The notes beneath the pieces are model-generated. The model was not told the DNA's origin. It did no database searches and saw only the letters and a list, made by a program, of their open reading frames with translations. Source: Gammaproteobacteria bacterium (GTDB taxonomy: Bacteria; Pseudomonadota; Gammaproteobacteria; UWMA-0217). From it: a stretch of DNA of 64,000 bases. The translations under genes were made by a program, and so were the position numbers. The stretch's first letter is position 1. Each line of letters starts with the position of its first letter. Below are positions 2,900-64,000 of the stretch, piece by piece. The DNA lies in assembly GCA_027081275.1 (NCBI GenBank), contig JALWKV010000002.1, positions 1,071 to 65,070 on the forward strand, read 5' to 3'.

Positions 2900-3490
2900 A
2901 TGAAACATCTCAAATATCTTGGCGCGGCGCTGTGCCTGCTTCCTGTTCTGCTGCATGCGGACTGGTACCCCTTTGGCGACGATGACAGCAGTTACGAATA
3001 CTGGGACGGCGCCACCTACGGCCAGGGCCAGGGCTATGGCGAGGGTTACGGTTATGGCTATGGTGACAGCCGCTATCGTGGCGACGGGCGTGGCCGCGGT
3101 GATTCGGCCTTTGGTTCCATGTCCGATGCGATGAGCGACTTCATGACCAACGGCGTCGGCGACATCTTTGGCGATATCGAGCTGGACTTCGAACTGAAGG
3201 CCCGCGCCCGCGGCAAGGGCAGCGGTTCCGGCAGGGCGCGTGGCAAGAGCGACTCCCGCGCCGAGTACTACAGCAGCGGCTCGGGCTACGGTGGCTATCT
3301 TGGGGAGTACTACGGCGAGGGCGCCGGAACGGGCTATGGCAGCGGCATCGAATACTACGACGGCGGCTGGGAGGGGTACGGCTACTCCGATGGTTACGAA
3401 GGCGGCTACTATCCCTATGGCGTCGATCCCGCCTGGGGTTATGGCTATGTTCCGCCGTATTACCAGTCATATGGTTACCTGCCGTACTAG
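2900..3490 (+). CDS. secreted Gly/Tyr-rich low-complexity protein (GYG / YGxG repeats), unknown function
   Basis: It has an N-terminal signal peptide (MKHLKYLGAALCLLPVLLHA), and about half of the mature protein is Gly or Tyr (GYGEGYGYGYGD, YGGYLGEYYGEGAGTGYGSG, a C-terminal YYQSYGYLPY). A GGAGG ribosome-binding site lies 7 nt upstream, and only 15 bp separate it from the radC stop. Confidence 0.6.
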   Translation: MKHLKYLGAALCLLPVLLHADWYPFGDDDSSYEYWDGATYGQGQGYGEGYGYGYGDSRYRGDGRGRGDSAFGSMSDAMSDFMTNGVGDIFGDIELDFELKARARGKGSGSGRARGKSDSRAEYYSSGSGYGGYLGEYYGEGAGTGYGSGIEYYDGGWEGYGYSDGYEGGYYPYGVDPAWGYGYVPPYYQSYGYLPY

Positions 3491-3667
3491 CCCGGATTTC
3501 TCACCACCCTTCTACTGCGACGTTCCAATGGCGCGCCCTGGCCGGTTTTCGCTCGGTCGGAGTGCTCGACATAGTGTCGGCTATGCCTGCGCGCTCCTCG
3601 GTCGTGAAAGCCACCCATGCCGCACCCTTGATCTGTCTCGCTACGAACGGTGGTGAGAAATGCGGGG
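3491..3667 (+). mobile_element. MITE-like element family C, copy 1 (~177 bp, terminal inverted repeats CCCGSATTTCTCACCACC)
   Basis: The terminal inverted repeats are cccggatttctcaccaccc ... ggtggtgagaaatgcgggg. It is ~95% identical to an inverted copy at 38733-38916. It begins immediately after the TAG stop of the upstream gene. Confidence 0.65.
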
Positions 3668-3670
3668 TAG

Positions 3671-3830
3671 AGGCTGTCGCAAAAGCGGTAGCTTTGCGGC
3701 AACCTCGCGCAGCACAGGGATGTGCTGCCAGAAACAACGACAATAAGTCGTTGTTTCTGTGAGAAAAGGGAAAATCGCACTTTTTTCGCGTGTCGCAAAC
3801 GTCCTGGATGGACTTTTGCGACACCCTCCA
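3671..3830. repeat. Repeat module B copy (gtcgcaaaag ... ctgccagaaacaacgacaataagtYgttgtttctg hairpin ... cttttgcgac)
   Basis: It is nearly identical to positions ~765-915 within the repeat at 651-933. Confidence 0.55.
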
Positions 3831-3859
3831 CTAGGGTGGGGCGCCCATATGACAGTCGG

Positions 3860-5275
<1,416 letters not shown>

Positions 5276-5463: not shown

Positions 5464-6867
5464 TCAGAAGCGATACGGCATGCGCAGGCCGAAGGTGAAG
5501 TCGGGTGCGTCGTCGGTCAGGCCGATACCCACGGTCCCAGCGATCGACAGGTGTTTGCCAAGGCTCTGGGTGACGCCGGTGTTGAACATGGCCGAGTTGG
5601 CGTCGCTGCCGGTTACGCTGGTCCAGCCACTGCCGGCGGTGCGGGTGCGGGTCTTGCTGGTCAGCTTGTGGCTGAAAGAGAGGCTCAGGCTGGTGTTTTC
5701 GTTCATCGCGATCGCCATGCCGAGGCCATAGCTCACCGAGTCGCCGAGGTCGATATCGCCGGCGGTGCGTGTCGCCGGGTCGGAATCGACGTCGGAGAAT
5801 GACTCCTTGCGGGTGTAGCCGATGCCGAAGTTGCCGAACAGCACAGCCGGGTCGCTGACCCTGACGAACGAGACGCCGGTATTGAGCGACCAGACGCCGC
5901 TGCCGGTCGGCAGGTTGGCTGGGACCGAGAAGGTCGTTACACCGTCCTGATCCTTTTCGATGATCTGAACGGGAACCCCGTACGGGTGCTTGCCGGTCGG
6001 TGCGGTGATGTCGATGTTCCAGACCCAGTCGAGCTTGCGCGCCGTTGGGAGCAAGCGGTAGCTCATGCCGAAGGAGGCGTCCCCGAGCGCCGGTTGCCGG
6101 GTGACGTCGGTTTCGCTGGTTGCCGTTGCGACGCCTCCGACACCGCCCTTGGCGTAGGTCGTGCTGCGGTAGACCAGTGGCGTCGTCAGGTTCAGTACCA
6201 TGCGGTTCGACACGCCATAGCGCGCTGTCAGCGAATAGGTGAGCGTGTCCGAAGCAACGCCCTCGACAGCCAGATTGCCGAGAAAGATGGCGTCGAGCGC
6301 GAGAAAGCCGTTCAGCGTCAGCTGGGTACGGTCATAGCGGCTGTAGTCGAGCGCCGACTCCAGCGTGAAGGTTTGGTTGAAAGAGGGGTGCTCCGCGTCG
6401 ATCAGATCTTCGACATTGCGAGAAATCGCCGCCACATCTCTCGCCTTTTTCCGATCGGTGCCGACCTGCTTGCCCGATGATGGGGGCGATGCTGGAGTCG
6501 TGTGCTGGCCTGAAGTCTGTTGGGAGCTCGGGGCTGCGGTGGATCGATGAGCATCGCTCCCGGTGAGCGCCTTCAGTTTGAGGTCGAGTGCCCGCAGTTT
6601 TCTCAGGTCGTTGTTGTATTGCCTTCGCAATAACAGCATTTCCTGTTCCAGTTGTTGTCGCGTGACGGTCGGTCCATCGTTCTTGTTTTGAGTATTGTCC
6701 TTGGATGTTGCCGATGAAACGGTTGCAGCTGTCCTCCCTGTTGAAAGCCCCCATTCCCTTTGCGAAGCTGATGAGCTGGTATCGGCCGCAAAAGAAGACG
6801 TGGCGACAATGGCGATTAGTATGGCCGCAGCGGCAGCCTTTGGGCCGAAATCCTTTTCAACTATCAT
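5464..6867 (-). CDS. fapF: FapF-like outer-membrane amyloid secretion pore
   Basis: It has a signal peptide, a coiled-coil segment (LEQEMLLLRRQYNNDLRKLRALDLKLKAL), a Ser/Thr/Pro/Ala-rich linker and a beta-barrel ending in ...MPYRF (C-terminal Phe). It is the last gene of the operon, as in Pseudomonas fap. Confidence 0.8.
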   Translation of the reverse strand: MIVEKDFGPKAAAAAILIAIVATSSFAADTSSSASQREWGLSTGRTAATVSSATSKDNTQNKNDGPTVTRQQLEQEMLLLRRQYNNDLRKLRALDLKLKALTGSDAHRSTAAPSSQQTSGQHTTPASPPSSGKQVGTDRKKARDVAAISRNVEDLIDAEHPSFNQTFTLESALDYSRYDRTQLTLNGFLALDAIFLGNLAVEGVASDTLTYSLTARYGVSNRMVLNLTTPLVYRSTTYAKGGVGGVATATSETDVTRQPALGDASFGMSYRLLPTARKLDWVWNIDITAPTGKHPYGVPVQIIEKDQDGVTTFSVPANLPTGSGVWSLNTGVSFVRVSDPAVLFGNFGIGYTRKESFSDVDSDPATRTAGDIDLGDSVSYGLGMAIAMNENTSLSLSFSHKLTSKTRTRTAGSGWTSVTGSDANSAMFNTGVTQSLGKHLSIAGTVGIGLTDDAPDFTFGLRMPYRF

Positions 6868-6921
6868 GAGTACATCCTGTTTTGGGAAGTGCTTGGCGGA
6901 AAAGGCGCTGCCAAGCGGGGG

Positions 6922-7713
6922 CTACAATCCTCGCAAACCGCTCAATGAAACGCCAAGAATCCTGCTCAGATTGGTCGACTCGTTGCCCGGTTTCATCAGA
7001 ATTGAGAGCTGCATACGGTTCGATATGGTGTGCGCATCGCCCAGCGTGCGGATCGACTGATGCGCGCCGCGACCCGTTCCGCCGATGACGGCGCCGCGAA
7101 TCGACTGCTGGACGACGCCTTGTCCCGCAATGGAGAGCGTTACCATCACGCCGCGCTCGTCGAGCCCAGAGCTGGCGGTAGCACCGGTGTTGTCGGTCAT
7201 GGTGCGGGAGACCGCTTCGGTCCCGCTGTCCCGCGACTCGGGCATGCTGTCGAGCATTCTGATGCCGAGCGTGTTCGAGGCCTGATTGAAATCACCGGCC
7301 ACCTGAATGGTCTGTCCCAGACCGGTCACGTTGTCGATGCCGCCCGGTTCGATGTGCCGGTCGGTGGGCGCCGCGCGTGTCGGAGTGCGGCCGCTGGATA
7401 CGATGCTCACGGTTGGCGTGAAGCTGACGGTGGGCGTGCCGCCGCCGGAAAAGTCCAGCCCGAGCCTGGCGCCACCCGATAGCTGCTGTCCCTGCGCCGT
7501 TTGCCACCTGCTCGCCATTTCCACGCCGAAATAGAGTACGCGATGGGTATCGACGACATATTTCCCCCTGATCTGCGCCATTTCCGGGTTGGTCAGCAGT
7601 GAGATGCCATTGCCCACGCTGCCATCGCCGGGCGCCGCCAGCAGCGCCGCTGGCGCCGCGGGCATCAATATCCCGGCGAGGAGATGGGCGATCAACCTCT
7701 TTCTCGTTTTCAT
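6922..7713 (-). CDS. fapE: FapE-like secreted protein
   Basis: It has a signal peptide, is 263 aa, and sits between the C39 peptidase gene and the fapF-like gene, the canonical fapE position. Any sequence similarity could not be checked. Confidence 0.55.
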   Translation of the reverse strand: MKTRKRLIAHLLAGILMPAAPAALLAAPGDGSVGNGISLLTNPEMAQIRGKYVVDTHRVLYFGVEMASRWQTAQGQQLSGGARLGLDFSGGGTPTVSFTPTVSIVSSGRTPTRAAPTDRHIEPGGIDNVTGLGQTIQVAGDFNQASNTLGIRMLDSMPESRDSGTEAVSRTMTDNTGATASSGLDERGVMVTLSIAGQGVVQQSIRGAVIGGTGRGAHQSIRTLGDAHTISNRMQLSILMKPGNESTNLSRILGVSLSGLRGL

Positions 7714-7725
7714 TTGTTGTGTTCC

Positions 7726-8430
7726 TCAGAAAAGGTCCGCATGAGTAAAACCGAAATCCAGCAGTTCCGAATCTGGTATCGCGGCCTGTTTTTCCAGCCA
7801 TTGATTGGCGCTGAGCCTGAACGGCATTTTCAGCAGTGCGGTGTTGCGATCGAAGCCGCTGCCGATGACAGCGAAAATCACCCGGTTGGCCCAGGCTTTG
7901 CGGAATGCTTCGAGATCCATCACCTTGTTGCCCAGTACCGGGTCGGCGAGAAACGCCTCGCCATCATGGATGCGTTTCAGAACGGAGAAATGCCGGTAGC
8001 CATCGATGTCCACCAGGACGATGACCGGGATCTTCAGTCTCTTCAGACGCTCCTCGGTAAGGCGATAACCGCGCCCGCGCAGCCCCAGTGATCCGACGTA
8101 GCGCTTCATGTCGAGCATCGAGAATCCTTTGCGTCGCACGATTTCTGCGTCGCCGGCATTGAGCATGCCCTGCATGATGACTTCTTCGGTCGCATCCATG
8201 CCGTAGCCGTACTTCAGAATCGTGGCCAGTGCCGCCGCGCCGCAGCTGTAGTCCGTTTGTTGCCTGATCACATTGGCGTATTTTGCTTCCTGCATGCTGA
8301 CGACGCGGCTGGTGTAGAGCCCGCCGAAAGCGGTTACGCCCGAGAACTGGACGTTTCCGGCGCCGGCGGTTGTCCCCGACAGGTACATCGCCGATGCCAG
8401 TAGTGCTGTGACGAAAGACTTGCGTTGCAT
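7726..8430 (-). CDS. fapD: FapD-like periplasmic C39-family cysteine peptidase
   Basis: It has a signal peptide and the peptidase C39 catalytic region ...QQTDYSCGAAALATILKYGYG... Confidence 0.8.
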   Translation of the reverse strand: MQRKSFVTALLASAMYLSGTTAGAGNVQFSGVTAFGGLYTSRVVSMQEAKYANVIRQQTDYSCGAAALATILKYGYGMDATEEVIMQGMLNAGDAEIVRRKGFSMLDMKRYVGSLGLRGRGYRLTEERLKRLKIPVIVLVDIDGYRHFSVLKRIHDGEAFLADPVLGNKVMDLEAFRKAWANRVIFAVIGSGFDRNTALLKMPFRLSANQWLEKQAAIPDSELLDFGFTHADLF

Positions 8431-16331: not shown

Positions 16332-16534
16332 GTAACTACTCAGCTCGTTCGGAAATACATCCGTGACTACTCAGGTTGCCCCTGGAATCCGACAGTTCAA
16401 GGCAGAATCGCACCGCCATCCATGGCTCCTTGCGAAATACAGCCCTTCCATGGGCATAAATGTGAGTTTACAAAGGTAAATGAGCATTTTCGAACGCAGA
16501 AATGGCGGATTTCAGGGGTGAGCTGAGTGGTCAC
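16332..16534 (+). mobile_element. MITE-like element family D, copy 1 (~31-bp terminal inverted repeats GTAACTRCTCAGMTYRCCYCTGARATCCGSC)
   Basis: It is inserted between rplU and rpmA. Its reverse complement matches 16882-17058 almost base for base. It carries a partial duplication of its own terminal inverted repeat at the 5' end. Confidence 0.65.
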
Positions 16535-16881: not shown

Positions 16882-17058
16882 TGTAACTGCTCAGCTCACC
16901 TCTGAAATCCGCCATTTCTGCGTTCGAAAATGCTCATTTACCTTTGTAAACTCACATTTATGCCCATGGAAGGGCTGTATTTCGCAAGGAGCCATGGATG
17001 GCGGTGCGATTCTGCCCTGAACTGACGGATTTCAGAGGCAATCTGAGCAGTTGCAGGC
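16882..17058 (-). mobile_element. MITE-like element family D, copy 2 (inverted relative to copy 1)
   Basis: It is the reverse complement of 16359-16534 and lies between the rpmA terminator and obg. Confidence 0.65.
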
Positions 17059-17122
17059 GTATTTCTGAGGGAACCGAGTTGCTACTGCGTTACACTTTCC
17101 GCATCCGGCGCTTGTGTCGTGA

Positions 17123-29768: not shown

Positions 29769-30833
29769 TTAGCTGTGGTAGGGCTTGCTGAATTCATGCA
29801 CCGAGTCCACCAGCACCTTGACGTTTTCGGGGTCGATGTGCTGATGGACGCCGTGTCCGAGGTTGAAGACGTGGCCCACATGGGCGCCGAATGACGCCAG
29901 AATCCGCTTCACCTCTTCCTCGATCTTCTCCGGCGAGCCGTAGAGCACGCCCGGATCCATATTGCCCTGCAGCGCCAGCCGGTCGCCGACGCGCTCGCGG
30001 GCATTGCCGATCTCGATGGTCCAGTCCAGTCCCACGGCGTCACAGCCGGTTCGCGCCTGCAGCTCCAGCCACTGGCCACCGCCCTTGGTGAACATGATCG
30101 CCGGAATGCGCTGCCCGTCCTGCTCGCGGATCAGCTGCGAGATGATCTGCTGCATGTAGTAGAGGGAGAACGCCTTGTAGGCCTCGGTCGTCAGCGCACC
30201 ACCCCAGGTATCGAAAATCATCACCGCCTGTGCGCCGGCCATGATCTGCGCATTGAGGTAGCTGGCGACCGAGTCGGCCAGCACTTGCAGGATCTGATGC
30301 AGCAGCTTCGGCTCGGTGTAGAGCATGCCCTTGGTGTTGGAGAACTCCTTGCTGCTGCCGCCCTCGATCATGTAGGTGGCCAGCGTCCACGGGCTGCCGG
30401 AGAAGCCGATGAGCGGCACAGCGCCGTCGAGTTCGCGGTGAATGGTTCTGACGGCGTCCATGACGTAGCGCAGCTCGTCTTCCGGGTCGGGAACGGCCAG
30501 CGCATCGACATCGGCGGCGGTGCGGATGGGGCGTTCGAACCGAGGACCTTCGCCCTCGGTGAAGTAGAGGCCGAGGCCCATCGCGTCGGGAATGGTGAGG
30601 ATGTCGGAAAAGAGAATGGCCGCGTCGAGGTCATAACGACGCAGTGGCTGCATCGTCACTTCGCAGGCGAGTTCCGGGTTGCGGCACAGATCCATGAAGC
30701 TCCCTGCCTGGGCTCGCGTGGCCTTGTATTCCGGGAGATAGCGCCCGGCCTGGCGCATGATCCAGATCGGGGTCTGGTCGACGGGTTCGCGCAGCAGGGC
30801 GCGAATGAAACGGTCGTTCTTGAGTTCGCTCAT
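29769..30833 (-). CDS. hemE: uroporphyrinogen decarboxylase
   Basis: [36 protein letters not shown]... Confidence 0.95.
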
Positions 30834-37589: not shown

Positions 37590-37796
37590 ATGCTGGTTGA
37601 TTTCTGGCACTGGATTACGCAGCTGTCCAACAGCAAGATTGTCGCGCTACTGATCTTTTTTCCGCTGTTCATCGGCATCGTGCTGTATGTCTACACGAAC
37701 AAGGAGCGCTCCAATCGCCTCGAATCCTACAAATACATGCCATTTCAGGAAGACGACGAGCCTGAAGTGAAACACGAAAAAGGTAATGTAAAATGA
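37590..37796 (+). CDS. ccoQ: cbb3 oxidase subunit CcoQ
   Basis: Small single-transmembrane protein between ccoO and ccoP. Confidence 0.7.
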   Translation: MLVDFWHWITQLSNSKIVALLIFFPLFIGIVLYVYTNKERSNRLESYKYMPFQEDDEPEVKHEKGNVK

Positions 37797-38725
37797 GCAA
37801 TGCCGATAACCGAAACAGCAAGGGAGTAGAGACCACCGGGCATGTCTGGGACGGGGATCTGCAGGAATACAACAACCCTCCGCCGATGTGGTGGACCTGG
37901 GCGTTCTACGGCACGATCGTCTTCGCGCTGATCTACTGGCTGCTCTACCCGACCTGGCCGATCGGCAAGGACTTCACCAAGGGCATGTTCAACAATATCA
38001 CCTTCGTCAACGACAAGGGTGAGGAGGTAACGACCCACTGGAACATGCGGGCGCTGTTTCTCAAGGATCAGCAGACCGGCGAGCAGGCCGTCAAGCAGAG
38101 GGAATACCTCGACAAGATCGCGAAGAGCAGCTATGCCGAGATCATGCAGGATCCCGACAAGATGGCTTTCGTCAATTCGATGGCGAAGGTGCTGTTCGCG
38201 GACAACTGTGGCCCCTGTCATGGCCGCGGCGCCGACGGCGTGATCGGCCTCTACCCGAACCTGCGTGACGACGACTGGCTCTGGGGTGGCACGATCGAGG
38301 ATATCGAGCAGACTATTCGCAAGGGCCGCAACGGTTACATGCCCTCTTTCGCCGGTGTCTTTCCCAAGGAGAAGCTGGAGGCCGTTGCGGCCTATGTCCT
38401 CTCGCTGTCGGGTATCGAGGGCGAGGACAAGGCGAAGATCGAGGAAGGCAAGCACATCTTTCAGGGTGAAGAGGGCGGGTGCTACTACTGCCATGCGAAA
38501 GATGCGAAGGGGATGAAGTCCCAGGGTTCGGCGAACCTCGCCGACAAGGTCTGGACCATTGCCAATGTCCCTGCTGCCGCGACCTACGAGCAAAAGCTGG
38601 CCGAGGTCGAGAAGGTCATTGTCAATGGCGTCAACCGCGAGATGCCGGCCTGGGAAGGGCGGCTCTCCGATACCCAGATCAGGCTCCTGACGGTATACGT
38701 CCATCAGCTCGGAGGCGGTAAATAA
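37793..38725 (+). CDS. ccoP: cbb3-type cytochrome c oxidase subunit III (diheme)
   Basis: Two CxxCH motifs (CGPCHG, CYYCHA). Confidence 0.9.
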   Translation: MSNADNRNSKGVETTGHVWDGDLQEYNNPPPMWWTWAFYGTIVFALIYWLLYPTWPIGKDFTKGMFNNITFVNDKGEEVTTHWNMRALFLKDQQTGEQAVKQREYLDKIAKSSYAEIMQDPDKMAFVNSMAKVLFADNCGPCHGRGADGVIGLYPNLRDDDWLWGGTIEDIEQTIRKGRNGYMPSFAGVFPKEKLEAVAAYVLSLSGIEGEDKAKIEEGKHIFQGEEGGCYYCHAKDAKGMKSQGSANLADKVWTIANVPAAATYEQKLAEVEKVIVNGVNREMPAWEGRLSDTQIRLLTVYVHQLGGGK

Positions 38726-38732
38726 TCTTACG

Positions 38733-38916
38733 CTAGCCCCGCATTTCTCGCCAGCATTCGTAGCGAGACGGCTCAAGGGTGCCGCATGGGTGGCTTTCAC
38801 GACCGAGGAGCGCGCAGGCATAGCCGACACTATGTCGAGCACTCCGACCGAGCGAAAACCGGCTGGCGCGCCATTGGAACGTCGCAGTAGAAGGGTGGTG
38901 AGAAAAGCGGGCTAGA
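38733..38916 (-). mobile_element. MITE-like element family C, copy 2 (inverted)
   Basis: It is the reverse complement of 3491-3667 (~95% identity), is flanked by CTAG on both sides, and starts 8 bp after the ccoP stop. Confidence 0.65.
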
Positions 38917-39070
38917 GTGGTCGCGTCTGTGCAGGCAGACGCGGTCGTTTGCATCCGGTCGGGGCGGGCAGCTTCATGGCCGCATGACAGCGGCGCCGGC
39001 TCGTCCGTGGTCGACTTTTCCGGGGCTCCACACTATTCTTCACCGCAGTTTTTTATCCCGGGCTTCCGCA

Positions 39071-40477
39071 ATGAGCGAACAGAGCGCACCATCGACGCGC
39101 GTTCCAATCTATCCCCGTTCCGTCAAGGGCAGTTTCCGCCGCTTCAAGAACGCGATTCTCGTCATCGCCTATCTGGTCTACTACGGTTTGCCGTGGCTGC
39201 CGTGGGATCGCGCCGTCGGTCCGGATCGGGCCGTGCTGTTCGACATCGTCGGGCGGAAATTCTATTTCTTCGGACTCGTCGTCCAGCCGCAGCAGATTTT
39301 CTGGCTGGCCGGTCTGCTGATGATCGCCGCGTTGCTGCTGTTCTTCGTCACCGGCGTGGCCGGGCGCGTCTTCTGCGGCTATTTCTGTTTTCAGACCCTG
39401 TGGAGCGATCTTTTCTTCAAGATCGAGCACTGGGTGCAGGGTGAGCGGCCAGCGCGGATCCGTCTCGCCCGCCAGCCGTGGAATGGCGAAAAGATCCGAA
39501 AGATGGGCCTGACCTGGCTGTTGTGGTTTCTCGTCGCATTCTGGACGGCGATCACCTTTACGCTCTACTGGGGGGATGCTGGCGATCTGCTGCGCCGTTT
39601 TTTCACCGGTGATGCGCCGAGCGCCATGTATGTGACCGTTATCGTGCTGACGTTCACGACCTTCACCATGGCGGGGCTGGCGCGGGAACAGGTCTGCACC
39701 CACATGTGTCCCTACTCGCGATTCCAGGCGGCGATGTTCGACAAGGATACCAAGCTGGTTGCCTACGACCAGAAGCGCGGCGAGGGCGTCAAGGGGCGTT
39801 CCAAGGTCAAGAAGGGGCTCAAGACCGCCGAGGATCGCCACGAGGCCGGGGTCGGCGACTGTATCGATTGCGGCTACTGCGTTCAGGTCTGTCCCACCGG
39901 CATCGACATTCGCAACGGGCTGCAGATCTCCTGCATCCACTGCGGTCTCTGCATCGACGCCTGCAACAACATCATGGACAGCATGGGCTGGCCTCGAGGG
40001 CTGATTCGCTACAGCTCCGAGACCGAGGACGAGGGTGGCAAGATCCGCATCTTCAAGCTCAAGTCCGTGGGTTACGCGCTCTCGATCATCGCCATCACTG
40101 CGGTGCTGGTCTGGAGCATCTCGCACAAGGCCGATTTGGAAACGGCCATCACGCAGACCCGTCAGCCGCTCTATGTGGTGCTGTCGGATGGAAGCATTTC
40201 GAACAGCTACGAGATCAAACTCGCCAACCAAACCTCGGAAGATCATCACTATGCGATCTCGATGCGGGGGCTGGACAATGCCGTGCTCGATACCGGCGGT
40301 TTCGACGAGGTCATGCTCAGGCCCTTCAAGACGCTGCGTCTGATGGTCAGGGTCAAGCGTAGTGGTGACGATGCCGGGGACAAGTCGAGCAAGGTCAAGG
40401 ACTTCTGGTTCGTCGTGACCGATGTCGCCAAGGGGCGGGAAGCGGCGGTCATCCCGGCGCGTTTCTACACGCCATGA
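39071..40477 (+). CDS. ccoG: cbb3 oxidase assembly ferredoxin CcoG/FixG
   Basis: Two 4Fe-4S motifs (CTHMCPYSRFQ, CIDCGYCVQVCP) in a membrane protein. Confidence 0.9.
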   Translation: MSEQSAPSTRVPIYPRSVKGSFRRFKNAILVIAYLVYYGLPWLPWDRAVGPDRAVLFDIVGRKFYFFGLVVQPQQIFWLAGLLMIAALLLFFVTGVAGRVFCGYFCFQTLWSDLFFKIEHWVQGERPARIRLARQPWNGEKIRKMGLTWLLWFLVAFWTAITFTLYWGDAGDLLRRFFTGDAPSAMYVTVIVLTFTTFTMAGLAREQVCTHMCPYSRFQAAMFDKDTKLVAYDQKRGEGVKGRSKVKKGLKTAEDRHEAGVGDCIDCGYCVQVCPTGIDIRNGLQISCIHCGLCIDACNNIMDSMGWPRGLIRYSSETEDEGGKIRIFKLKSVGYALSIIAITAVLVWSISHKADLETAITQTRQPLYVVLSDGSISNSYEIKLANQTSEDHHYAISMRGLDNAVLDTGGFDEVMLRPFKTLRLMVRVKRSGDDAGDKSSKVKDFWFVVTDVAKGREAAVIPARFYTP

Positions 40478-46780: not shown

Positions 46781-46935
46781 GTCGCAAAAGCCCTCCCCAC
46801 GGGGGAGAGGGTTTGGGAGAGGGGGAAAGCCATTGTTGTTCACCCTCTCCCTCATAGGGAGAGGGAGTTTTTCGATACCCTGTGTAGCGAGGGCTTGTGC
46901 GGCAACCTCGCCAGAGAGGTGGCTGTTGAGGCATC
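46781..46935. repeat. Mosaic intergenic repeat (module A with a module B fragment), copy 3
   Basis: ccctccccacgggggagagggtttgggagaggggg...accctctccctcatagggagagggagtttttcga matches 661-700 and 900-930 of the first copy. Confidence 0.55.
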
Positions 46936-47046
46936 CGCCTTGCGGGAGACGGAATCCGGCAGAAGACCGTTGGGATTGGCTATATTATCGAAGAGTCCCC
47001 GCGCCAATTTTGGGTGGACGGGGTGGTGACTTTCAGCTTGTACAGA

Positions 47047-47176
47047 AGCCTGCCTGTAACTGCTCAGATTGCCCCTGAGATCCGGCAGTTCAAGGCAGAA
47101 AATGTGAGTTTACAAATGTAAATGACCATTTTCGAACACAGAAATGGCGGATTTCAGGGGTGAGCTGAGTAGTTAC
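47047..47176 (+). mobile_element. MITE-like element family D, copy 3 (short variant lacking the ~55-bp central CCATGG-palindromic segment)
   Basis: It has the same terminal inverted repeats as 16332-16534 (gtaactgctcagattgcccctgagatccggc ... ggcggatttcaggggtgagctgagtagttac). Confidence 0.6.
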
Positions 47177-62447: not shown

Positions 62448-64000
62448 ATGGGTATAGAGCAACAAGGCACCCTGAACTCGAAAGAGCAGATCGATACGAC
62501 CGCCGAGAATGGCGGTGGCGCCCCTCTCACCGCGATCAACGACTGGATCGATGTTGCCTCCAATTCCGAGAACACGATCATCAATGTGCTGGCCAACGAC
62601 CTGCATGCCGGCGGAAACATTTCCATTGTCCGTTTCGAGCAGCCTGCCAACGGCGTCGTCGTCGACAATGGCAATGGCACTTTCAGCTATACCCCCAATC
62701 CCGGTTACGCCGGCAAGGATACCTTTACCTACGTTGTTGCCGACGACTACGGGAATGAATCTTCCGCGCTGGTGGAAATCTACGTGATCGGCAGCGGCAG
62801 CCAGCCGTCCGATGAGCAGAACGAGCAGCCGGAAAACGCCTTGCCGGATGCCAAGTGGGACGACGCCGTGACCGACGAAAACCAGCCTGTCACCATCGAC
62901 GTGCTGGCGAACGACAAGGATCCGGACGGCGATCCGATTTCCATTACCGGTTATACCCAGCCGCAAAATGGCAAGGTGGTGCAGAATGCCGATGGCTCCT
63001 TTACCTATATTCCCAACCCCGGCTTTCACGGCACCGATGTATTCGAATACTCCGTCACCGACGGCGTCAACTCCTGGGGGGATACCGCTCGGGTGACGAT
63101 CGAGGTCCGCGAAATCGGTCAGGCGCCGGTTGCGCGGGACGACAGCAGCGTTACCGATGAAAACGTTCCGGTGGTCATCGATGTGCTGGCCAACGATTCC
63201 GACCCCGATGGTGATCCGCTGACGGTCTCATCCGCAACGGCCGCGCATGGTTCGGTGCAGATCAATGCCGACGGGAAGCTGGTCTATACGCCGGATGACG
63301 GCTTTTCCGGTCAGGACAGCATCGTCTATGAAATTGTCGATCCCGATGGCAATACCGCGAACGCCACGGTTACCGTGACCGTGCGGGAAGGCAATGAAAC
63401 GCCGGTCGCGATTGGCGACAACGCCGAAGTCGAGCAGGATCAGGTGGTCGTCATCGATGCGCTGGCCAACGACAGTGATGCCGACGGCGATACGCTGTCG
63501 ATCGTCGATTATTCCCAGCCCCAACATGGCATGGTGGTGCAGGATGCTTCCGGCAATTTCGTCTATCGTCCGGAGGCTGGGTTCAGCGGCAGTGACTCGT
63601 TTACCTATGTCGTCAGCGACGGCCAGGGGGGCACGGATACCGCTACCGTGTCGATCAACGTGCTGCCTGTCGTTCCGCCCGAACCGGAAAACAACAGGCC
63701 TGATGCCGATACCGATGTCGCGTTCATCGATCAGGGGCAGCCGAGCATTATCGATGTGCTGGCCAATGACAGCGACCCGGATGGCGACAGTCTGACAGTC
63801 AGCCAGTTTTCCAGGCCGGCGCACGGCAGCGTCGAGCTGAATGACGACGGCACCTTCAGCTACCAGCCCGATGCCAATTTCTCCGGTGTCGATTTCTTTG
63901 AATACACCGTCGATGACGGCAACGGCGGTACCGATACGGCGCGCGTCTACATCTGCGTTCACGAAACCAACCGTGGGCCGGATGCCGATGATGACATGGC
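62448..64000 (+). CDS. large repetitive adhesin-like protein with tandem ~100-aa VCBS / cadherin-like repeats (5' part only; it continues past the window end)
   Basis: There are at least five tandem repeats, each with ...PVA.DD..VTDENQPV.IDVLANDSDPDGDPLTV.......HGSV...DG.F.Y.P..GFSG.DSF.Y.V.DG.GGTDTA.V.I.V... An RBS-like GGAGAAGAAGAA sits upstream and the GC3 codon bias is strong. The gene is absent from the ORF track because no stop codon is reached. Confidence 0.75.
   Translation, partial: MGIEQQGTLNSKEQIDTTAENGGGAPLTAINDWIDVASNSENTIINVLANDLHAGGNISIVRFEQPANGVVVDNGNGTFSYTPNPGYAGKDTFTYVVADDYGNESSALVEIYVIGSGSQPSDEQNEQPENALPDAKWDDAVTDENQPVTIDVLANDKDPDGDPISITGYTQPQNGKVVQNADGSFTYIPNPGFHGTDVFEYSVTDGVNSWGDTARVTIEVREIGQAPVARDDSSVTDENVPVVIDVLANDSDPDGDPLTVSSATAAHGSVQINADGKLVYTPDDGFSGQDSIVYEIVDPDGNTANATVTVTVREGNETPVAIGDNAEVEQDQVVVIDALANDSDADGDTLSIVDYSQPQHGMVVQDASGNFVYRPEAGFSGSDSFTYVVSDGQGGTDTATVSINVLPVVPPEPENNRPDADTDVAFIDQGQPSIIDVLANDSDPDGDSLTVSQFSRPAHGSVELNDDGTFSYQPDANFSGVDFFEYTVDDGNGGTDTARVYICVHETNRGPDADDDM

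Follow-up and report, generated by a model that had tools for sequence, protein, structure and literature searches.

The window analysed here, 64,000 nucleotides of contig JALWKV010000002.1 from a gammaproteobacterial assembly, contains two copies of a small gene-less repeat, each placed at or shortly after the stop codon of a gene (Table 1). Copy 1 has as neighbours an ORF for a Gly/Tyr-rich, secreted-type protein (2900-3490, +) and a convergent gene for a sigma-54 activator (3860-5275, -), and the stop codon of the former, TAG at 3488-3490, lies within the CTAG that borders the element on the left. This protein of 196 aa, rich in Gly, Tyr and Asp, has a signal-peptide-like N-terminus and no Pfam match, and an identical copy of it is found in only three public contigs. 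Copy 2 occupies the spacer between ccoP/fixP (37793-38725, +), whose product matches Pfam FixP_N, and an ORF at 38984-40477, and its left CTAG begins at the eighth base past the ccoP stop (38723-38725). An earlier note, made from the letters of this DNA, had described both placements, and for copy 1 its boundaries, its length and its start at the TAG stop all hold. It had also described an inverted second copy at 38733-38916; such a copy is present, but that range takes in both CTAGs and the element itself is shorter.

Table 1. Positions of the two copies, their ends and their target-site copies in the window, and of a palindromic repeat in the fetched loci of MAG JALUUZ01
Feature	Position	Strand	Remarks
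CTAG, left target-site copy of MITE copy 1	3487-3490		
MITE copy 1	3491-3667	+	177 bp, full-length imperfect fold-back; fourth G at right end
Left terminal inverted repeat, copy 1	3491-3512	+	CCCGGATTTCTCACCACCCTTC
Right terminal inverted repeat, copy 1	3645-3667	-	reverse complement CCCCGCATTTCTCACCACCGTTC
TAG, remnant of right target-site copy of copy 1	3668-3670		C missing or replaced
CTAG, left target-site copy of copy 2	38733-38736		
MITE copy 2	38737-38911	-	175 bp, inverted relative to copy 1
Terminal repeat of copy 2, degenerate	38737-38759	+	CCCCGCATTTCTCGCCAGCATTC, 2 mismatches to pattern
Terminal repeat of copy 2	38890-38911	-	reverse complement CCCGCTTTTCTCACCACCCTTC
CTAG, right target-site copy of copy 2	38912-38915		
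Palindromic JALUUZ01 repeat	L038 1380-1500 / 1680-1760; L060 1825-2000; L042 845-1016; L072; L043; L058		

The two copies align in ungapped blocks of 135 nt (93% identity) and 51 nt (96%) found by a repeat finder, in agreement with the earlier estimate of about 95%, and copy 2 has a 2-nt internal deletion between these blocks. When 20-nt flanks are included in a pairwise alignment, the similarity starts and stops at the flanking CTAGs. Both copies carry a fourth G (GCGGGG) at one end, and the family consensus has a length of 176 bp. The terminal inverted repeats reported before are real, as the pattern CCCGNNTTTCTCACCACCNTTC matches four times in the window with at most 2 mismatches, against 0.02 matches expected; they measure 18-22 nt and every copy of the family conserves them. 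The claim that both copies are bounded by CTAG stands for copy 2 on both sides and for copy 1 on the left, but not for the right side of copy 1, where a TAG remnant directly adjoins an unrelated repeat (3670-3828). The only ORF in copy 1, MLDIVSAMPARSS... (3562-3762, 66 codons), has no Pfam match and extends beyond the element into this neighbouring repeat; it is spurious, as had been supposed.

Several other repeats are present in the window. The one that adjoins copy 1 belongs to a second MITE-like repeat of ~160 bp, found at 745-907 and 3670-3828 (91% identical) with weaker end matches at 30597, 46775 and 46909, whose terminal repeats (GAGGNTGTCGCAAAAG) resemble IS5-family ends (cf. ISPsy19, GAGGGTGTAGACAAAAT). 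The 745-907 copy has TCA/TCA flanks, and after the 3670-3828 copy, which lacks a clean duplication, come CA and the CTAG at 3831-3834; this copy may have inserted into the right-hand target copy of copy 1. A third repeat family forms inverted arms of 203 nt at 16332-16534 and 16883-17085, 89% complementary and 348 nt apart, with related pieces of 58-77 nt about 30 kb away (47033-47176). In addition, a G-rich repeat of 45 nt (CTCCCCACCGGGGAGAGGGTTTGGGAGAGGGGG...) occurs at 672-716 and 46793-46837 (89% identical), each copy beside or inside a copy of a GAGG...CAAAAG repeat. Finally, tandem repeats of ~280-315 nt at 62578-63800 encode a VLANDxDPDGD-type motif, as in cadherin/VCBS-like repeat adhesins, within an ORF that runs off the window end.

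Copy number, hosts and size classes

We scanned the end pattern over 185,579 species-representative genomes and JGI metagenomes; the L-numbers used below denote fetched loci, from genomes or metagenomes, plasmids or IS-bearing contigs. Terminal-repeat matches were obtained at a minimum of 99 genome loci and 120 metagenome loci. Nearly all the genome matches listed are in MAGs labelled Gammaproteobacteria, Thiotrichales, Thiotrichaceae, Sedimenticolaceae, Thiogranum or Ectothiorhodospiraceae, and the family belongs to uncultured sulfur-oxidiser-type Gammaproteobacteria. Three of the matches listed fall in Acidobacteriota, Planctomycetota and Myxococcota bins, and either match only the end pattern by chance or lie on contigs that may be mis-binned. 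One MITE-rich MAG, JALUUZ01, provided dozens of loci, and many of its contigs end within a copy, as is typical where a repeat is present in high copy number. Viral contigs gave no matches, and neither did plasmids when the whole 184-nt copy was used in a blastn search.

Complete elements were defined by pairing adjacent inverted ends, with redundancy removed across the genome and metagenome sets. The first set contains 62 of them and both sets together at least 121 non-redundant ones; among the genome matches listed, 14 of 20 assemblies have complete elements. The earlier note had proposed a search for further copies, insertion contexts and duplications, and in other assemblies the complete copies, counted without redundancy, exceed 120. 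Between 47 and 332 bp in size, they peak sharply at 176 bp. Different subfamilies share the conserved outer ~35 nt, where pairwise identity averages 0.88; in the interior it averages 0.75 and falls to a minimum of 0.52 between subfamilies. Short forms, such as one of 53 bp (CCCGCATTTCTCACCACCCTTCTACTGCGACGAACGGTGGTGAGAAATGCGGG), are internal deletions that retain both ends, and the longer 'elements' of 225-310 bp appear composite with the palindromic JALUUZ01 repeat of Table 1 or with other small repeats. The reading of the earlier note, a non-autonomous transposable element, is supported by a gene-less, many-copy family with conserved ends and 4-bp duplications.

Some related structures deserve mention. 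A palindromic repeat in JALUUZ01 (...CCCGCGGTCCGCAAGCTTTTTTCTGCGCC...GCAGAAAAAACTTCCGGACCGCGGG) has at its centre CGAG/CTAG, a recurrent MITE insertion site. The published Thiomargarita MITEs are unrelated. Long end pairs (0.7-3 kb) are separate small elements around host genes. The only adjacent long pair (L159 1420-2923, on the same contig as L078) encloses 1504 bp with CTAG on both sides, and its ends match only the outer 18-20 nt of the MITE; this segment lacks a transposase and contains two small ORFs whose starts resemble signal peptides (small secreted-protein genes), and it could be either a cargo unit that the same ends mobilise or a pair of solo ends.

Target site and duplication

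The earlier note had suggested CTAG as the target site, and the flanks of the 121 complete elements bear this out: CTAG is present on both sides in 48, on one side in 42 and on neither side in 31. In the first set of 62 elements, the great majority have CTAG on both flanks, and the next outward position is without preference. Because CTAG is palindromic, CTAG/CTAG pairs cannot separate a direct duplication from a part of the inverted repeat or from an internal TA duplication. More informative are the 31 elements with other flanks, which comprise 11 identical direct non-palindromic pairs (five TTAG/TTAG, three CTAA/CTAA, two CTGG/CTGG and one CCAG/CCAG), four TTAA/TTAA pairs, two inverted pairs and 14 pairs that differ. 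The variants on single flanks are mostly TTAG, CCAG and CTGG, all transition products of CTAG. The direct non-CTAG pairs, together with the absence of TTAG...CTAA, establish that the duplication is direct and of 4 bp, and that the target is YTAR with a strong preference for CTAG.

Filled and empty sites were also compared, the empty ones being uninterrupted paralogous copies of another repeat family and not orthologous loci. L038 is filled (CCAG...CTGG), and its paralogous empty counterparts L060, L042 and L072 carry one tetranucleotide (CGAG); similarly, L007 is filled (CTAG...CTAG) and the paralogous L019 is empty, with one tetranucleotide (CCAC). Two other filled/empty pairs were discarded, L030 with L175 as too diverged and L007 with L002 as not clean. 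Moreover, in five of six cases in which two elements lie back to back the spacing is exactly 4 nt, as expected if the flanking duplicate is reused as a target. A pattern search of the metagenomes for an orthologous empty site of copy 2 gave 0 matches, and the contigs that carry the identical Gly/Tyr protein or CcoP either have the same insertion or break at the element.

Ends shared with IS1380-family insertion sequences

A permissive blastn search (E <= 10) with a minimal element of 61 nt found a plasmid IS of 1655 bp, shared by the Stutzerimonas zhaodongensis megaplasmid and Pseudomonas putida pKF715A (L223, L224), that starts with CCCGCATTTCTCACAG, ends with CTGTGAGAAATGCGGG and has ctag on both sides. 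Its protein, WP_034018616.1 in pKF715A, is annotated as an IS1380-family transposase and scores 406.8 bits on NCBIfam NF033539 (cut-off 180). When this transposase was searched against all fetched loci, two decayed IS copies were recovered from MITE-bearing loci. In L079, from the MITE-rich MAG JALUUZ01, an IS left end (ctaa followed by CCCGCGTTTCTCACCAGG) precedes ~95 nt and then the first 52 codons of a transposase gene, which is interrupted by an insertion of the MITE itself. In L220, a MITE-bearing metagenome contig, an internally deleted IS joins approximately residue 43 to approximately residue 298, and its end reads CCCGCCTTTCTCACAACC followed by ctag. Two other IS ends come from contigs of database relatives of the transposase remnant, those of L225, a 1784-bp IS that begins with CCCGCATTTCTCACAATG after ctag and is followed by ttag, and of L227, where ctag precedes CCCGCATTTCTCACCAGC.

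The MITE ends are of the CCCGCATTTCTCACC type and start with CCCGC. The sequence that they have in common with the IS1380-family ISs, CCCGCATTTCTCAC..., comprises 14-18 nt, and identity of this length is seen with L223/L224, L225, L227, L079 and L220. Over 18 nt the end of L227 does not differ from those of the MITE subfamilies L087 and L067, and it has one difference from the main subfamily in the first 18 positions. The duplication is likewise alike at the copies examined, with flanks ctag/ctag (L223, L224), ctag/ttag (L225) and ctag at the ends of L227 and L220, so that complete IS1380-family ISs have the same ends and the same 4-bp CTAG duplication as the MITE. They differ in that the ISs measure ~1.65-1.8 kb and encode a transposase, whereas the MITE is gene-less, with conserved ends that reach ~35 nt and a fold-back structure over its full length. 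Beyond the outer 14-18 nt the sequences are unrelated, and therefore the MITE is not a simple deletion derivative of the IS copies seen.

We looked for an intact partner. The window has no IS1380-family coding sequence, and neither it nor the ~1.3 Mb of MITE-bearing loci yielded an intact transposase gene whose ends match exactly; the IS1380-family copies seen in these loci are all decayed (L079, L220). Similarly, clustering of the ORFs of at least 200 aa in the fetched loci (~1.3 Mb) revealed no multi-copy transposase, and the genes beside unpaired ends are ordinary ones (patatin, MazG, ABC transporters, LolE, Fic and others). The database relatives of the IS1380 remnant found by protein search all carry PF13701; a first search for the closest full-length parent returned fragments of at most 184 aa, and a second one full-length proteins only about 55-77% identical to the remnant. 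In L005 (~6600-7838), a solo MITE end of 52 nt preceded by CTAG is followed by a YhgA/Rpn-like putative transposase ORF (PF04754, E = 1.7e-5), with another CTAG ~1.27 kb inward of the solo end; this ORF was rejected as the partner, as it has no second end and is a one-off.

Given the IS1380-type ends and the 4-bp YTAR duplication, the family is very probably an IS1380-family-related bacterial MITE, and we infer that it is mobilised in trans. In the mechanism that we propose, both ends would be bound by a DDE transposase of the IS1380 family, whose gene would lie elsewhere in the genome or have been lost since. The element would then insert where a YTAR tetranucleotide, in the great majority of cases CTAG, is cut in staggered fashion, and gap repair would leave 4 bp duplicated on both sides. 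Where the target includes the stop codon of a gene, the duplication restores that stop and the gene stays intact, as at copy 1.

Other origins have to be weighed against this one. The earlier note had pointed to IS630/Tc1 or IS5 as the source of a transposase, and neither fits a direct 4-bp repeat, instead of TA, with ends that match those of the IS1380 family. In an IS630/Tc1-type MITE, the TA in CTAG would be duplicated and the adjoining G and C would be the true termini. IS630 does prefer TA within 5'-CTAG-3' (Tenzen & Ohtsubo 1991, as cited in PMC2170065), and with CTAG as the target both models lead to the same appearance of filled and empty sites; however, its duplication is limited to TA, and at a TTAA target it would leave TTAG on the left and CTAA on the right, a combination that is never seen. 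Instead, TTAA/TTAA occurs four times, TTAG/TTAG five times and CTAA/CTAA three times, direct pairs outnumber inverted ones by 11 to 2, and the full-length elements with matching ends encode IS1380-family and not IS630-family transposases, all of which makes an IS630/Tc1-type origin highly improbable. A MITE of another family that duplicates 4-bp YTAR, either the IS5 group (like MITEPsy1) or IS701, is very unlikely. MITEPsy1/ISPsy2 duplicates CTAG or YTAA (PMC3189936), IS701-family elements make duplications of exactly 4 bp (PMC2266710), and the plasmid IS transposase has a weak secondary match to the IS701 model (23 bits). Nevertheless, the MITE ends start with CCCGC, and not with GG/GA as in the MITEPsy1/ISPsy2 repeats (PMC3189936), they do not fit the IS701 end consensus ---YACT-Y--YR (PMC2266710), and every full or decayed IS found with these ends encodes an IS1380-family protein; no IS5-family partner element with the ends of the MITE was found. 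REP/REPIN elements, mobilised by RAYT, were rejected too, as neither end is self-complementary and the insertions show a direct duplication of 4 bp. As for a local segmental duplication or a chance palindrome, the window itself has only two copies, and the earlier note had accepted that its reading would fail if these were the only ones and lay within a larger duplicated segment. With more than 120 copies known, hundreds of related ends in other assemblies, unrelated flanking genes and a similarity that ends exactly at the flanks, the chance of such an origin is negligible.

The element can be compared with several known systems. In the IS1380 family, which includes ISEcp1, ends begin with CC and the duplication is of 4-5 bp. 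The piggyBac elements of eukaryotes make a 4-bp TTAA duplication and have CCC...GGG termini, which resemble the YTAR and the CCCGC...GCGGG of the MITE, and four MITE copies have TTAA/TTAA flanks; the MITE differs in its bacterial host and in that CTAG is strongly preferred over TTAA. The Correia elements of Neisseria and the ERIC/IRU elements of enterobacteria are also high-copy, palindromic and intergenic, with 100-170 bp, and are often co-transcribed at gene ends, with documented promoter and RNase III effects. Unlike the MITE with its 4 bp, they have a TA duplication and other ends, and we know of no identified parent transposase for them. The closest functional analogue is MITEPsy1 of Pseudomonas syringae, with 100 nt, 18-nt terminal repeats and a 4-nt CTAG/YTAA duplication (PMC3189936), which differs in its ends (GGAAGGTCTGAAAAAGCC), its IS5 parent and its low copy number. 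Within the IS1380 family, IS1247 is given as 1672 bp with IR 16/13 and DR 5 in PMC3281130, and the IS1380 transposases serve as the prokaryotic outgroup of piggyBac (PMC10813416).

Gene ends, hairpins and significance

The earlier note had seen in the position after a stop codon a sign that the element supplies or targets terminators, and our data do not favour this. Whichever strand is read, YTAR contains TAG or TAA as a stop triplet, and CTAG is markedly rare in these genomes, with a 4.5-fold depletion across the window (19 against 86 +/- 9 expected); the first 645 kb of loci contain 382 CTAGs, of which 125 flank element ends. Thus, usable non-lethal targets are concentrated at or just after gene ends. 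In 28 of the 62 elements of the first set, an open frame of 80 codons or more ends with the TAG at the flank, and in 42 a stop codon lies within 20 nt. This coincidence is not above that of unoccupied CTAGs, as the TAG is the stop of a frame of at least 100 codons, on either strand, at 23 of 62 occupied sites (37%) and at 75 of 257 unoccupied ones (29%; odds ratio 1.4, Fisher p = 0.22). With respect to the gene that provides the stop, the two orientations stand at 9:7. We found 0 intrinsic terminators (GC-rich stem plus T-run) in 3300-4000 and 0 in 38500-39200, and no sigma-70 promoter consensus in or next to either window copy. The post-stop position follows from the choice of target.

Folding, another check proposed in the earlier note, gives a full-length hairpin in every copy and size class, and the two window copies have no T-run terminator. 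As RNA, either strand of copy 1 has a folding energy of about -91 kcal/mol, where shuffled sequences reach -62 to -64 (z = -6.3 to -7.0), and as DNA the values are -41 against -29 kcal/mol (z = -4.1). The consensus has compensatory changes in 16 of 41 pairs with a small covariation term (-1.5 kcal/mol), and strict complementarity of the arms in the interior is only 0.60-0.74, in an analysis that cannot separate structural selection from shared ancestry. In 60 of the 62 elements the strand opposite to that shown by copy 1 gives the better RNA fold, the mean difference being 14 kcal/mol for copies of 176 nt, and the interior alone has the same direction in 28 of 30. The forward strand is C/T-rich and the strand asymmetry tracks composition; it may be simply inherited, descent and selection being inseparable here.

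It is tempting to see in these hairpins a host function at gene 3' ends, as a terminator, a REP/ERIC-like mRNA-stabilising stem or an RNase III site, in which case the post-stop position would reflect selection and not target choice. About two thirds of the copies lie within 20 nt of a stop, and most would therefore be transcribed into 3' UTRs or operon spacers; this proximity, the hairpin in every size class with its strong z-score in copy 1, the compensatory changes and the strand bias are all points in favour. Against them stand the lack of a T-run terminator, of a promoter consensus and of an Rfam match (0 in the window at gathering score, and nothing inside the element at E <= 1), the near-even orientation, a stop coincidence that unoccupied CTAGs match, the small covariation term and a strand asymmetry that tracks a C/T-rich composition shared by descent. 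Moreover, copies are also found in other repeats and in a transposase gene. We consider a host-function hairpin unlikely, and equally unlikely a co-opted role in which the hairpins modulate transcript ends or operon polarity at the RNA level; target choice by a mobile element accounts for the position.

The element is of an ordinary kind, and the CTAG-targeting family itself is, as far as we found, apparently undescribed, since the searchable full text of the literature returned no description of an IS1380-derived MITE family. It will not surprise a specialist; its use lies in annotation and in showing how a target can drive positional bias. Those who annotate MAGs of sulfur-oxidiser-type Gammaproteobacteria gain a defined repeat family, with its ends, size classes and target, that breaks assemblies, as many contigs end inside copies, and creates spurious ORFs. 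The family also represents a clear bacterial high-copy MITE tied to IS1380, the prokaryotic relatives of piggyBac. In addition, it provides a worked example of how a depleted target that contains a stop (CTAG/YTAR) alone yields an apparent preference for the position after stop codons. Finally, its unusually sharp target specificity may interest students of target choice by IS1380/piggyBac-type elements.
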